A stretch of DNA of 64,000 nt from Eledone cirrhosa. Its lineage: Eukaryota. The position numbers and the translations under genes are program-made. Shown piece by piece: positions 18,200 through 41,380 of the stretch (its first letter is position 1; each line of letters begins with the position of its first letter). The DNA lies in NCBI GenBank assembly GCA_964016885.1, contig OZ024740.1, forward strand, positions 125,984,001 through 126,048,000, read 5' to 3'. The notes below the pieces were generated by a model. It made no database searches. It saw only the letters and a program-made list of their open reading frames with translations, and had not been told where the DNA came from.

Positions 18200-18615
18200 T
18201 TCTTTTTGAAGGACTGCTGCACTTTTAAACTTAACGGTCCTTCTAGCACTGACGGAGACAATCGCTGAATATTAATATTAATGTAGTTTTTTATATTGAT
18301 ATTACCTGAACATCCACTGATGAATTATAAGAGCTCACTTGCATGGATATCTATGGATTATATGCAAGCTTCTACATAACTTGGACATTATTTTCCCACC
18401 TTGTAGAAATCTTATAACGAAACGATCGTATGGAAAGAGAGATTTATTTAATTATGTCTCATATAAAATAATACAGCCGACTATCCACGAAATACAATAT
18501 AGTTAGCACCCCAAACGTATAATTGGGATTATACTCAGGTATATTCTAATGATTGTTGAGTGAGATGGGAGTTTGGTCGGAGTATCGCTAAAAGCTTTCT
18601 CTGTTAATGTATTAA
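18200..18615 (+). mobile_element. Non-coding PLE 3'-end remnant (family shared with 40878-41380)
   Basis: Colinear with the reverse complement of 40878-41380; ends at (TA)n; contains an HHR. Confidence 0.75.
18313..18434 (+). ncRNA. Type I hammerhead with 95-nt branched domain II
   Basis: Stem I TCCA/TGGA, CTGATGA at 18317-18323, TTATAAGA/TCTTATAA closing stem II, GAAA at 18419-18422, then C-GATC-G and a GUA triplet. Confidence 0.8.
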
Positions 18616-18617
18616 GT

Positions 18618-18830
18618 ATATATATATATATATATATATATATATATATATATATATATATATATATATATATATATATATATAGAGAGAGAGAGAGAGA
18701 GATGTATATATATATATATATATATATATATATATATATATATATATATATATAGAGAGAGAGAGAGAGATAGAGAGATAGAGAGAGAGAGAGATAGAGA
18801 TATAGAGAGAGAGAAAGAAAAGAGAGAACA
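18618..18830. repeat. Compound (TA)n/(GA)n microsatellite
   Basis: Direct runs. Confidence 0.95.
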
Positions 18831-19225
18831 GAAGTTGAAGACATGACTCTGAAGCCTAGCAATTTCGGCTTGTATTCGGCAAGCCAATATTATAGTAACC
18901 GAATAAAAGCTGAAATCACGAAGCATCGCATTTAGGGTTTCACTTTCGGGTATACTCACTCTGCTTCTTCCTGTGCATGGAGTACTCCCCCCCTCCCCAA
19001 ATATATATATATATATATAGGTATCGAGAGAGAGAAGAAAATGGAAAGATGGTTGATACATATATTTAGTTGCCAATAATTTATGCATGTGTGCTCCATA
19101 CTCGTGCCTACAGGGTTAAATATTAGAGGCGTCAATATTTAGTGGGCGAGAGAAAATAAGCAGAGCGATTATAAAGGAAATGAATACAAAGAGTTTAAAA
19201 CCGTTAAAACATGTTTATATAATAG

Positions 19226-19268
19226 TGCACCTACGTACGTTTCGCCCTGAGCGGATTTATCAAGGGCA
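19226..19268 (-). ncRNA. Minimal type I hammerhead, U3-A8 variant
   Basis: Minus: TGCCC-TTGATAA-ATCCGCTCAGGGC-GAAA-C-GTAC-G-TA-GGTGCA. Confidence 0.7.
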
Positions 19269-19444
19269 TGGAAAGCAAAATAATGTTCAATGTTCAAACC
19301 CAGGAGGGAATTCACGGGAGTAACTCTGGCCGGTGTTCAAGCAATCTGTCCCATGTGGATTTTTATGCCTGTTCATATGCTGGTGTTTAACATCTTTATA
19401 TTATGTGTAAATTATGTGTATATATATATATATATAATAAAAGT

Positions 19445-20087
19445 ATATATAATAAAAGTATGTGTACCCACATGCAATTAATACACACAGGGATACAAGT
19501 ATAGTCCGACCATGTGCCAGTGTGGTTCAATGGCAAGTTAATAATTAACAAGTCAGAACATATAAAATCAAGGGAAAGCAAATAAAGAAAAGAATTTAAA
19601 ATAAATTATAAAAAATTCACTGTACTTACTATATGTGCCTACACCGCGGTTTCAAATCCCAAACGAATAGATAATCCGGGCGGATATCCATTGCGAAGGA
19701 GATTATCGTCAGAAGGCATTTCTCTACCGGAGAATATAAAATTCTCGAGTTAAAAATTTCAAACTGGCGCCATTCCAAACTTCCTCAGAATGAGAGTAAA
19801 TGAATGATAAAGCAGTTTTTGGTATGGCACCGTGTGCAAAGGCGAGAACACGGTAGACAAGTTAATCCTGTAATGCTAAAAATAGCAGCCACTCAGACGA
19901 CTATAGGTTTCTCTACCATTGCGGAGAATAATAATAAAAGTATGTGACCCTACATTAAAACACACAGGGATACAAGTATTGTCCGACCATATGCCAGCAA
20001 AGTTCCCAATGGTACATATAGTAAGTACAGTGAATTTTTTAAAATTTATTAAAAATGTTTTTCTTTATTTGATTTCCCTTGATTTTA
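19445..20087 (-). mobile_element. Non-coding PLE remnant with direct and inverted terminal segments
   Basis: Direct repeat 19448-19520/19931-19998 and inverted repeat 19563-19637/20012-20087; degenerate HHR at 19636-19718 (-); (TA)n flanks. Confidence 0.7.
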
Positions 20088-20128
20088 TATATATATATAT
20101 ATATATATATATATATATATATATATAT

Positions 20129-20337
20129 AGTACGTTATTCCGGGTTGAATCGGAGGTAACCACAGTAAGTAAGGTACTCAATACATTGCAGAGTATAAAA
20201 GTTTTAATATAGATGAGATTCTACAGGACTAGAACTGTTTCATTCTTTAGAAATCATCAGGAATCTCAGAGATTCCTGATGATTTCTAAAGAATGAAACA
20301 GTTCTAGTCCTGTAGAATCTCATCTATATTAAAACTT
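20129..20337. mobile_element. Miniature palindromic PLE derivative: two back-to-back hammerheads plus tail
   Basis: Perfect palindrome 20199-20337 centred on A20268, unique ~70-bp tail on the left, (TA)n on both sides. Confidence 0.85.
20269..20321 (+). ncRNA. Type I hammerhead (mirror copy at 20215-20267 on minus strand)
   Basis: GAGATTC-CTGATGA-TTTCTAAAGAAT-GAAA-CAG-TTCTAGTC-CTG-TA-GAATCTC: 7-bp stem I, intact core, GUA triplet. Confidence 0.85.
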
Positions 20338-38320: not shown

Positions 38321-39087
38321 TATTATTATATATAATTATTATAGTATTATTGTGACATCTATATTGTTTGTGTAAATTAACCGGAGATTATCCATTCTAT
38401 TATATTATATTATATAGTATATAATTGTATAGTTTATTATATATTATATGTGCTACTTATAATAATATCATATTATTACCTCATGTATATTGGGTATATG
38501 TATTATTATTATTATTATTATTATTATTATTTTTATTCCTATCATGCTTATTTATATTTAAACTCTTAATAAGGTTTAATTTGTGCAGTTGAAGATGGAT
38601 ATGTGTATTGATATATGTGTATGTGTGCGTACGTGTGCGTACATATATACATATGTATATTGTACCTTTTGATTTTTATTGTAATTTTAATATTGGTAAA
38701 GGTATATTATATTATGTTACATTGTATTATATATAATTCCTGCTCTATATAACCATATTGATATATGTGTATGTGTGCGTACGTGTGCGTACATATATAC
38801 ATATGTATATTGTACCTTTTGATTTTTATTGTAATTTTAATATTGGTAAAGGTATATTATATTATATTACATTGTATTATATATAATTCCTGCTCTATGT
38901 AACCACTTTTGCTTTGGACTATATTTGTAATATGGTTCTAAATGTTATACACCTCCTTAGTGATTTTTATTATATATTTTTATTATATATTTTTACCCAT
39001 AATCTTGCAATACTTTAGTGTATGTACACTCCATATTCTTCGGAGTTTCCGGCTTGTATTGGCCGATAATACTTCTTGTTGTTTAAA

Positions 39088-39130
39088 TTGCCCTGATGAG
39101 TCCTTAATAGGACGAAACATTGTTGGCTAA
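39088..39130 (+). ncRNA. Canonical minimal type I hammerhead
   Basis: TTGCC-CTGATGA-GTCC-TTAATA-GGAC-GAAA-C-ATT-G-TT-GGCTAA; predicted cut after 39124. Mirror at 35635-35676 has GAA instead of GAAA. Confidence 0.88.
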
Positions 39131-39314
39131 TAAAGACTTTTGATGTATTGAAGGCTTCTTTGTTTTACTTTCATAATTCTTCGGCTCTGTTTAACTACAT
39201 TGAGCTATACCTTTTACTGTCATTTCTATAATACGAAGAGGGTGTTTAACTCCAACACGCTCCAGTATTTTAACCCTTATATATATATATATATATATAT
39301 ATATATATATATAT

Positions 39315-39550
39315 ATAGGAACGAGTAGGACTCCGACGGCTGAGCTCTAGCCGTTTCGACGGCTAATTCTGGACTAAATGAACATTTTTATCCTGGCATA
39401 TAATTTTCATTTAGTCCAGAATTAGCCGTCGAAACGGCTTGAGCTCAGCCGTCGGGGTCCTACTCGTTCCTATTACCCACTCTACTACCCTAAGTATTGA
39501 GTAATTTGGTGCGTTATGGTCCACTTGGTTCCCTACCACATTTCCTTCAT
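39315..39550. mobile_element. Miniature palindromic PLE remnant with half-hammerheads and tail
   Basis: Near-perfect palindrome 39315-39473 containing GAAA-CGGCT...AGCCG-TC but no CUGANGA; tail similar to 61104-61172. Confidence 0.75.
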
Positions 39551-40239
39551 CTCAGTCGGTGAAAAGGAAACATAAAGCATTCATTTACTCCTATCTATCT
39601 ATCTATTTACCTCTCTGTCAGTTCATCTGTCTCCACCCTCTCTTTCTCTTTACACACACACACACACACACACACACACACACACACACACACACACACA
39701 CACACACACACACACACACACACACACACACACACACACATATATATATATATATATATATATATATATATATAATTGTTTCATGATGTGTGTGTGTCTG
39801 CTCGATGCATAAAACTTGTTCTCTGCAGTAACAGTCTCATAGACATACTAATTAAAAATCGCACATTTTACTTTTCTGAATGTAACCTAAAGCAAATACT
39901 ATTTGGCGCAGTTTAATTAGAAAATCTCAATTTGTCAATGCAGGTCTTCCTACAAAGATTTTTCCGGAGGTGTGACCTGGTTTTGTTATATGTTATTGAT
40001 TAAACCATTTCTGAAGGCGGATTTTAAGACCAGTAAACAAGGTGTGTAACTTTGAGTGAAGAATTTGAAGCTAGCGTCAACAGTTTTCAACAATCTCCAT
40101 TTAAAGTATATTTGCTAGTTTTGTTGTTGTTTGGCTAAACACGCATATGCGCATATGTATGATTTCCATAGGTATAAAAATAACAAGAAAACATCTTCCT
40201 TATCTTACAGTATATATATATATATATATATATATTCTA

Positions 40240-40497
40240 GGGTGGGTAAAATTCCCGAGATCCATGGACGAGTTCTCTTCAGCGGTCTCTGTCCCTCATT
40301 ATCGCTGCCATGTCCTGCGTCTCTAACAGACCAGTGTCTGTCCTTAGTGCATCAACATACGTTAACCTTGGTCTTCCTCTTCCAGTGTGTCCATATAGGG
40401 GATCCCACAGGAGCACTGAGTGCAATGTCAACTCTGGATATCGGTGAGCATGTCCAGCTAACCTCAATCTCCTCTGTGTCACTTTTGAGCTGACTTT
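40240..40497 (-). mobile_element. RTE-clade LINE 3' end
   Basis: '[11 protein letters not shown]...LLWDP...[16 protein letters not shown]...MRDRDR' is the typical RTE C-terminus. Confidence 0.8.
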
Positions 40498-40877
40498 TGT
40501 ATGTATATGTATATATGTATATATGAATATATATGTATATATATATGTATATATATATGTATATATATGTAAATATATATATATATATGTATATATATAT
40601 GTATATATATGTAAATATATATATATATATATATATATATATGTCATATATATGTATGTATATGTATATATATATATATATATATATATATATATATATA
40701 TATATATATATATATATATATGTGTGTGTATATATATATATATATATATATATATATATATATATATATATATATATATACATATATGTAAATATATATA
40801 TATATATGTATATATATATATGAATATATATATATATATATATATATATATATATATATATATATATATATATATAC

Positions 40878-41380
40878 AATACATAAACAGAGAAAGTCTT
40901 AAGTGATACTCCGACCAAGTCCATCTCACTCAACAAACATTAGGATATGCCTAAGTATTATCCCAATTTAGTGTTTGGGGTGCTAACTAATCAGTATTTC
41001 GTGGATAGCTGGTTGTATTATTTTATATGAGACATTATTAAATAAATATCTCTTTCCCTACAGACGGCCGTTTCGTTACAAGATTTCTACAATTTGGGAT
41101 AAATCATTTCCAGGTTATGTAGAAACTTGTATATAATCCACAGTTTTATACACAAGCGGGCTCATATAAACTCATCAGTGGATGCCCAAGTAATATCGAT
41201 ATAAGAATTATATCAACATTAATAGAATGGTGATGGCCTCCCTCAGCGCTAAGAAGAGACTGGTAGATTAGAAAATCCAGCAACAACGTGGTATTTGGTT
41301 CAGTAAAAAAGATCAAGAGCCTTCTACTACAGCTTCCGTTTGACCAATGCCTTGTACAGGGAATCTTCAAAAGCCCTGAC
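40878..41380 (-). mobile_element. Non-coding PLE 3'-end remnant, diverged homolog of 18200-18615
   Basis: Colinear similarity; (TA)n on both sides. Confidence 0.75.
41059..41182 (-). ncRNA. Type I hammerhead with branched domain II
   Basis: Minus: TCCA-CTGATGA-G...two internal hairpins...C-GAAA-C-GGCC-G-TC-TGTA. Confidence 0.8.

Follow-up and report, generated by a model that had tools for sequence, protein, structure and literature searches.

The 64,000-nt window analysed here (positions 125,984,001 to 126,048,000 of contig OZ024740.1, assembly GCA_964016885.1, Eledone cirrhosa) carries two motifs, at 18313-18434 on the forward strand and, counted with its 5′ tail, at 41059-41188 on the reverse strand, that are, as read from their sequence, decayed copies of a type I hammerhead ribozyme (HHR) carried by a high-copy non-coding mobile repeat. 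Both contain the CUGANGA, GAAA and NUH core around stems I to III, with stem I open, in the order stem I, CUGAUGA, domain II, GAAA, one C-G pair with a palindromic tetraloop, GUH and stem I. Domain II spans 95 or 97 nt and is predicted to form a three-way junction, in which stem II opens into two hairpins that we call P2a and P2b; taken by itself, it is predicted to be more stable than every one of 200 shuffles in each copy (z −3.5), which does not hold for the whole motifs (z −1.6 and −1.2 for copies 1 and 2).

In copy 1, stem I (18313-18316, TCCA, with 18431-18434) flanks the core segments 18317-18323 and 18419-18422 (GAAA), stem II pairs 18325-18332 with 18410-18417, P2a occupies 18338-18368 and P2b, with its 7-bp stem, 18370-18408; loop III is GATC (18424-18427), and the GUA triplet places the predicted cut at 18430/18431. 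Two further strands form a candidate pseudoknot, a 5′ tail (18307-18311, degraded here, consensus UGGGC) and a junction strand (18333-18337, consensus GCCCA). The corresponding parts of copy 2 lie at 41188-41184 (tail), 41178-41172 (core), 41161-41157 (junction), 41156-41126 (P2a), 41124-41085 (P2b) and 41074-41071 (GAAA), followed by loop III GGCC and a GUC triplet with a predicted cut at 41063/41062. Both are damaged relative to their own subfamily consensus: in copy 1 the GG of the tail has become AA, a junction C has become T and position 10.1-11.1 is A.C, while copy 2 has a mismatched stem I (TGTA instead of TGGA) and a U.U inside stem II, and its hammerhead fold lies 14.5 kcal/mol above the minimum free energy. 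Among the 150 of 175 Rfam matches listed, no hammerhead fell on the window motifs, and none reached gathering score in six loci of the family, a miss that is expected for a domain II of 95 nt.

The two loci are homologous (79% identity over 415 nt), the homology extends beyond the ribozyme, and each motif sits inside a 5′-truncated copy of a dispersed repeat that ends in (TA)n. The first copy (18090-18619, +) is 97% identical over 524 nt to the consensus of a subfamily A with a 703-nt unit, and the second (40877-41282, −) is 97% identical over 405 nt to that of a subfamily B with a 759-nt unit. What the initial annotation had described at these loci is borne out: the homology, the stem II with two internal hairpins in both copies, the C-G to U-A change in one hairpin (which adjoins an A-U to G-U change), the replacement of GATC by GGCC in a loop III that stays palindromic, and the exchange of GUA for GUC, both of which match GUH. 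One compensatory pair between two copies is, by itself, insufficient for a claim of selection.

The wider family supplies that comparison. Searching the 3.0 Gb genome with copy 1 gave 40 scored subfamily A matches out of 5,057 first-look candidates, and each window copy retrieves its own subfamily, the top matches being 90-96% identical. Additional searches yielded lineages C, D and F, so that unit lengths are 703, 759, 761, 995 and 728 nt for A, B, C, D and F, with identities of 67 to 92% among the consensuses. Patterns aimed at new lineages recovered mostly decayed B copies, one match leading to lineage C. Lineage D appears young, since its copies are 98-99% identical over the 179-nt query; its unit is longer through an internal duplication of about 250 nt in the 5′ region (positions 9-262 and 260-510, 75% identical). 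An exact pattern combining the core, stem I and the 3′ strand of stem II has 2,008 genome matches, a lower bound, with none for the reversed-pattern control. The units are 32-34% GC, and their longest ATG frames, of 43-65 amino acids (aa), mark them as non-coding. The sampled loci were the top matches to the query copy, which biases them towards young, long copies. The 3′ ends of 147 of 149 copies cluster within 17 nt of a single internal position and are followed by (TA)n; in copy 1 the conserved segment of about 185 nt between cut site and this fixed end, which we take as marking the start site of reverse transcriptase (RT), runs from 18431 to 18619. The 5′ ends are variable, and 46 of the 149 copies exceed one unit (up to 1.7 units) and continue into the next; four loci (L104, L115, L124, L206) hold two complete HHRs each, and no long arrays were seen among the loci. 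A fixed internal 3′ end, 5′ truncation and partial-tandem (pLTR-like, pseudo-long terminal repeat) insertions are thus all present, as for Penelope-like elements (PLEs), whose described behaviour includes partial tandems, internal starts and AT-rich targets (PMC8557442; PMC11167929). Judged by its insertion structure and non-coding unit, the repeat appears to be a non-autonomous Penelope-like (retrozyme-like) dispersed element targeted to (TA)n. Two candidate features were discarded along the way: a tRNA-derived head of a short interspersed element (SINE), dropped by eye, the apparent 5′ end at 18090 being mere truncation, and a putative GT...AG intron in subfamily A, which is not kept in B or C.

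The five lineage consensuses show where selection has acted. Not one of the 57 core and stem columns varies (unchanged: core 11/11, stem I 8/8, stem II 14/14, stem III 2/2, P2b stem 14/14, tail/junction helix 8/8), against a background of 3/14 in the linkers, 191/382 in the 5′ flank and 113/167 in the 3′ flank (50-68% in the flanks), and 17 of the 25 P2b loop columns are likewise unchanged. P2a behaves differently: 8 of its 14 outer positions change with pairing maintained, and in the outer eight pairs 9 of 9 substitutions over three lineage steps keep the pairing (simulated p 1e-4 to 2e-3, calculated without lineage D because its bulge shifts the register). Among 25 chosen copies, three of nine P2a pairs changed on both sides and three on one, in a shuffle test whose own tool warns that relatedness inflates significance. 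P2b showed no covariation (0/7 and 0/3 pairs), as follows from its invariance in A-F, and 20 hand-picked copies held no compensatory change in the inner P2b helix, whose outer U-A pair is broken in about 14 of them. Covariation is therefore established for P2a only, and the argument for selection on P2b is one of invariance and of distant families.

Within lineages, private (single-copy) changes strike structured and unstructured positions alike (89/9,665 versus 77/7,979, or 0.92% versus 0.97%, p 0.81). Inserted copies thus decay neutrally, which means that selection acted on master lineages rather than on the window loci, each of which lies about 3% from its subfamily consensus, like its sister copies. 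These data support purifying selection on the branched HHR at the level of the element's master lineages. The proposal of the initial annotation, purifying selection on a multi-way-junction hammerhead, accordingly holds for the masters, with their 57 invariant columns and maintained P2a pairing, and fails for the two loci themselves, which carry lesions and decay neutrally; of the internal hairpins, P2a shows covariation and P2b, which is invariant in A-F, does not.

Alongside the unchanging core, H17 is only A, C or U in the lineage consensuses, and loop III, which in A-F reads GAUC, GGCC or AAUU, has remained a palindrome across two double changes (p 0.015-0.04). The four A-F loop III 8-mers examined are fully self-pairing. 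A stem III of 1 bp with a palindromic loop is the PLE-type trait of dimeric HHRs, and the retention of the palindrome through three sequences points to cleavage as a dimer. The pair at 10.1-11.1 is more variable: the consensuses of A, B and C have G-C and those of D and F U.U, while A.C is found in copy 1 and in a separate family E, and C.A in a family I.

We consider it probable, from these sequence comparisons, that the motifs are the ribozyme of a non-autonomous Penelope-like (retrozyme-like) family, a branched dimeric HHR mobilised in trans. Tandem copies of the element would be transcribed, and two ribozymes would pair through the 8-nt palindrome into a full stem III, each cutting the GUH site of its partner; we posit this dimer step because the loop III 8-mer is self-complementary and because such behaviour has been published (PMC4209133; PMC6765202). 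The branched domain II and the 5′-tail/junction helix would pre-organise the “enzyme” half, replacing the usual loop I-loop II contact. The cut RNA, perhaps ligated or circular, would then be bound in trans by the RT/endonuclease of a PLE, which would nick (TA)n, start internally about 185 nt downstream of the cut and copy up to 1.7 units. Only masters that fold correctly would propagate, giving purifying selection at the lineage level.

Other hammerhead families of this genome speak to the role of the branched fold. Family I, found in one retrieved locus (L027; 677 first-look candidates, 30 fetched), is homologous to A-F through its 3′ segment (score 123 versus 59 ± 6, reached by 0 of 200 shuffles). 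The sequences of stem I, stem II, P2a and P2b in its consensus differ from those of A-F, the three-way junction is the same (z −4.2), and GGGC before stem I and GCCC after stem II are kept; its copies are decayed, GCCC being scored in 11 of 30. Family E (L128-L187) is a non-coding, TA-targeted repeat of about 830 nt with a branched HHR of its own. Its patterns gave 847 and 75 matches, at least 900 overall, almost all of them E among the matches listed, and in three of its four sublineage consensuses the predicted fold has two hairpins, with a stem II of 7 bp and a junction of 6 nt. Family H (8 motifs in L035, L053, L155, L176 and L202, unit about 530 nt) has a 6-bp stem II of varying sequence, a single-hairpin domain II and a six-base palindromic loop III, with three tandem HHRs in L035. 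Loop III is also palindromic in E (UCGA) and takes the form UAAUUA in H; sequence comparison detected no homology of E or H to A-F. Given the long domain II in several families, an expanded domain II is a recurrent feature among the PLE-type hammerheads of this genome, and the branched form is one stable solution among them. Single examples of further HHR-like motifs with a long domain II occur at L101:2086, L181:2261, L186 (−) 2503 and in L139/L142, the first three with palindromic loops III (CGTACG, CCGCGCGG and CCCATGGG, respectively); a candidate in L097 was ruled out as an inverted repeat.

This diversity also lends itself to another account, in which the core is functional and the two hairpins are a tolerated insertion, required by selection only to fold away from it, the branched shape being functionless in itself. 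Domain II does vary among the genome's HHR families, with one hairpin in H and a long rod in a Hydra-type element of the window; P2a sequence turns over freely, damaged sublineages have spread, and E shows weak covariation (both sides altered in 5 of 43 pairs, a value as high in 125 of 500 shuffles). A mere insertion would nevertheless sit uneasily with a P2b whose stem and loop are so much better kept than the linkers, and with the traits common to A-F, I and E, namely a stem II of 7-8 bp, an unpaired junction of 4-6 nt directly after it and two hairpins. We regard this account as unlikely, and favour a branched domain that contributes to a dimeric ribozyme.

How the branched domain might contribute is suggested by the nucleotides right after the 5′ strand of stem II, which are unpaired in the junction and complementary to those just before stem I. 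The candidate pseudoknot pairs are GGGC/GCCC in A-F and I, GGCG/CGCC in E and GAGAA/UUCUC in H, with chance values for single examples of 0.012 (A-F/I type), 0.076 (E) and 0.003 (H) in windows set after inspection. RNAalifold finds the A-F helix unprompted and draws it in place of stems I and II, pseudoknots being beyond that program. On these models the GGGC/GCCC helix may be an activating contact of the kind in PMC3088659 and PMC7936874, or it may be a timing or inhibitory helix. The latter possibility, an early-folding element that holds the monomer inactive, could draw on the preference of RNAalifold for this helix over stems I and II, on its presumably forming first during transcription and on a stem II (7-8 bp) longer than stem I (4-5 bp), for which parallel docking is not obvious. 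The helix, however, shares no nucleotide with either stem and is therefore compatible with both as a pseudoknot, and similar GCCR/YGGC contacts have been described where helix II has 6 bp and the helix I stem 5 bp (PMC7936874), so that an inhibitory role strikes us as doubtful.

A dimeric ribozyme that acts during mobilisation might leave traces at the 5′ ends of insertions, as RT should run off at the cut site of cut templates. Among 45 non-redundant copies that exceed unit length, 22 extend, on their second pass, to the vicinity of the upstream cut, and 7 of these 22 stop at −1 to +15 (1.5 expected, p 6e-4). Among TA-flanked truncations in the first 100 matches listed, comprising 26 distinct loci counted by eye, about 13 lie at 0 to +11, 13 at +12 to +20 and none at −12 to −1. 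This accumulation of 5′ truncations just 3′ of the cut is a hint of cleavage in vivo, and suggestive only.

Several observations weigh against a branched dimeric HHR that cuts during mobilisation. The −1 to +15 window of the 5′-end test was picked after seeing the data, stalling of RT at structure or TA microhomology could also produce the pile-up, and 22 first-pass D copies lack a step at the cut. The most numerous lineages carry U.U at 10.1-11.1 and a GUU triplet, both suboptimal for an HHR, and the A.C of copy 1 at that pair is common to 9 of 30 A copies, which share the A at 10.1, contrary to strict selection. Damage to P2a, or the breaking of an inner P2b pair, did not keep some sublineages from spreading; one of them, with two mismatches in P2a, accounts for 4 of 30 A copies, of which two are duplicates. 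For the pseudoknot, there is no lineage-level covariation in A-F, the sole two-sided change being that of copy 1; at least four Watson-Crick pairs form in only 14 of 59 E copies, one of five H loci lacks the helix, and when only nested pairs are allowed, stems I and II of D and F give way to it (pair probability 0.05 or less). The 3′ segment of the repeat is unlike the 3′ ends of two window PLEs (z ≤ 0), and matches between the unit and PLEs were only short and AT-rich, as judged on PLE fragments in the retrieved loci and with no genome-wide search for a partner. Finally, for Poseidon of Anolis, HHR cleavage was dispensable for insertion in vitro (PMC11167929).

That last study, in which the HHR required PLE protein for cutting and insertion by catalytic mutants was normal, lends weight to a third account, that the fold is maintained as a signal through which a helper PLE protein or a host factor binds or packages the RNA, while cleavage is slow, protein-assisted or dispensable. 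Every HHR-bearing copy has been copied through an intact cut site, 15 of the 45 non-redundant long copies passing two, and the conservation of P2b is one of sequence rather than covariation. A binding signal alone, however, would hardly demand invariance of all 11 catalytic nucleotides, an H17 confined to A, C and U, or a loop III that stays palindromic through two double changes; invariant catalysis together with a kept palindrome is the signature expected from dimeric cleavage, and we rate this account as less likely still than the preceding two. That the host has exapted the two window ribozymes and that selection maintains them where they now lie, an idea for which the intact core of both copies is the sole argument, is highly improbable given their sister-like divergence, their lesions in stem I, stem II or tail and the neutrality of private changes family-wide.

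A dimeric ribozyme mobilised in trans would require a helper, and the window also holds PLEs. A near-intact element of Hydra type spans 46260-52472 (+), with an inverted copy at 42410-46333. Its 813-aa open frame (46260-48701, +) fits, by motif match, the Hydra-clade features given in PMC8557442: an RWK-like motif (RWR), DKT, CxCx5C, a C-terminal GIY-YIG-like motif and a (TA)n target; Pfam returned no match for this frame. The frame is followed by a microsatellite-rich 3′ region of about 3.7 kb that is duplicated as a 98% inverted repeat, and the 3′ end of the element carries a further HHR (52255-52408, +; z −6.0) with a 116-nt rod-like domain II, loop III GATC and a GUU triplet, itself present as an inverted copy near 42480-42617 (−). 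Relatives of this rod-type HHR in L100, L189 and L043 have paired changes in the rod. Broken copies of Hydra-type PLEs flanked by inverted repeats lie at 28754-30865 (+) and 37435-38322 (−), the latter associated with a small canonical HHR at 39087-39131 (+; Rfam Hammerhead_1, E 0.005), of which an inverted copy near 35634-35678 lacks one A of GAAA. Because they share the (TA)n target and are present in the window, Hydra-clade PLEs are our leading guess for the helper, the 46260-48701 frame representing a candidate class. Another PLE, abundant in the flanks of retrieved loci (L026, L045, L057, L148, L010), has a C-terminal endonuclease, looks Neptune-like by eye and carries a minimal HHR without stem III; a Naiad identity considered for one RT fragment was rejected on the presence of a C-terminal endonuclease.

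Elsewhere in the window, a near-perfect foldback of 149 nt (20194-20342) bears a small HHR-like motif on both strands (20276 + and 20260 −), with a similar motif in L099. Other foldback (inverted) repeats lie at 11503-12146, 13416-13501, 39315-39473, 41916-42245 and 63451-63651, and a SINE-like dispersed repeat has at least eight copies (637-856, 2857-2947, 5897-6231, 20793-21180, 23474-23694, 24362-24441, 34820-35037 and 58224-58329).

Hammerheads of PLEs have been reported as minimal, slow and without tertiary contacts, and as dispensable in one in vitro study. The Eledone genome holds a non-minimal PLE hammerhead in thousands of dated copies, in lineages of which D and F are young and near-identical, and these copies separate lineage-level selection from neutral decay, pinpoint helices to mutate and hint, from genomic data, at cleavage in vivo. 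As they also make plain, an entire set of natural hammerheads escapes Rfam and descriptors built for short loops. It is conceivable, if rather unlikely, that a class of hammerheads with a large domain II has so far stayed hidden and that the elements described here are the first known of its members. In such a class a branched domain II and a tail/junction pseudoknot would make up a pre-folded enzyme half, efficient cleavage would occur only in the palindrome-linked dimer, and circular RNAs of 0.7-1 kb would result. Were this so, such motifs might be common in invertebrate PLEs, as published descriptors cap the length of loop II, and might account for some elements reported to be HHR-less (the “HHR_half_core” Naiads of PMC8557442); the core search of that study was limited to spacers of 7-17 nt, with eight half-core Naiad cases at 35-50 nt.

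Dimeric HHRs of PLEs with a long helix II and a palindromic loop III are known (Cervera & de la Peña 2014, PMC4209133) and resemble those described here in being type I, with a helix II of 7-8 bp, a helix I of 4-5 bp and a small palindromic helix III, and in occurring as dispersed truncated copies in many families per genome. In contrast, their helix II ends in a small loop, with no tertiary contact described in the parts of that paper available, where the Eledone motifs have a 95-nt three-way junction and a candidate pseudoknot, and their conserved G-C at 10.1-11.1 is here often a mismatch (U.U, A.C, C.A). Metazoan non-LTR (long terminal repeat) retrozymes (PMC7229834, PMC7761336, bioRxiv 10.64898/2026.07.22.740005) likewise have a non-coding, low-GC unit with one type I HHR, insertions of more than a unit and a proposed PLE helper; their tandem units, each with an HHR, also occur here, and HHR_Amex2 of the axolotl shares the U.U at the base of helix II. 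Retrozyme units, however, measure about 150-400 bp and show canonical loop-loop contacts, whereas the present units are 703-995 nt and occur mainly as monomers or partial dimers that share a single fixed 3′ end in (TA)n.

Pseudoknots have been predicted in about 40% of HHRs (Perreault 2011, PMC3088659), and the pseudoknotted examples (PMC3088659; the toad and termite hepatitis delta virus (HDV)-like and D. pseudoobscura type III hammerheads of PMC7936874) share with ours a Watson-Crick link between the helix I and helix II sides and extra hairpins past an internal loop. Those hammerheads have a stable helix III and carry the additional hairpin at the end of helix I. In the Eledone motifs, by contrast, helix II gives rise to two hairpins, pairing is through the junction strand and helix III would be completed only in a dimer. 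Hydra-clade PLEs (Craig 2021, PMC8557442) have (TA)n targeting and a 3′-located HHR in common with the repeat, and the Hydra-clade copy in the window adds an expanded domain II and the same GATC palindrome as copy 1; their HHRs are described as canonical, and no sequence link to the repeat was found in the loci compared. AT-rich targets are also where internal initiation by RT has been reported (PMC11167929), and HHR variants with additional helices exist (PMC13725137). Within a literature whose coverage was partial, including PMC6155905, PMC6765202, PMC10085705, PMC10162972, PMC6962438 and PMC13725137, the passages covered do not describe a three-way-junction domain II in PLE or retrozyme hammerheads, which does not establish its absence from print. 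Set beside these systems, the HHR with a branched domain II appears to be a new structural variant of PLE/retrozyme hammerheads, and the candidate GGGC/GCCC pseudoknot and the clustering of 5′ truncations just 3′ of the cut are likewise new here.

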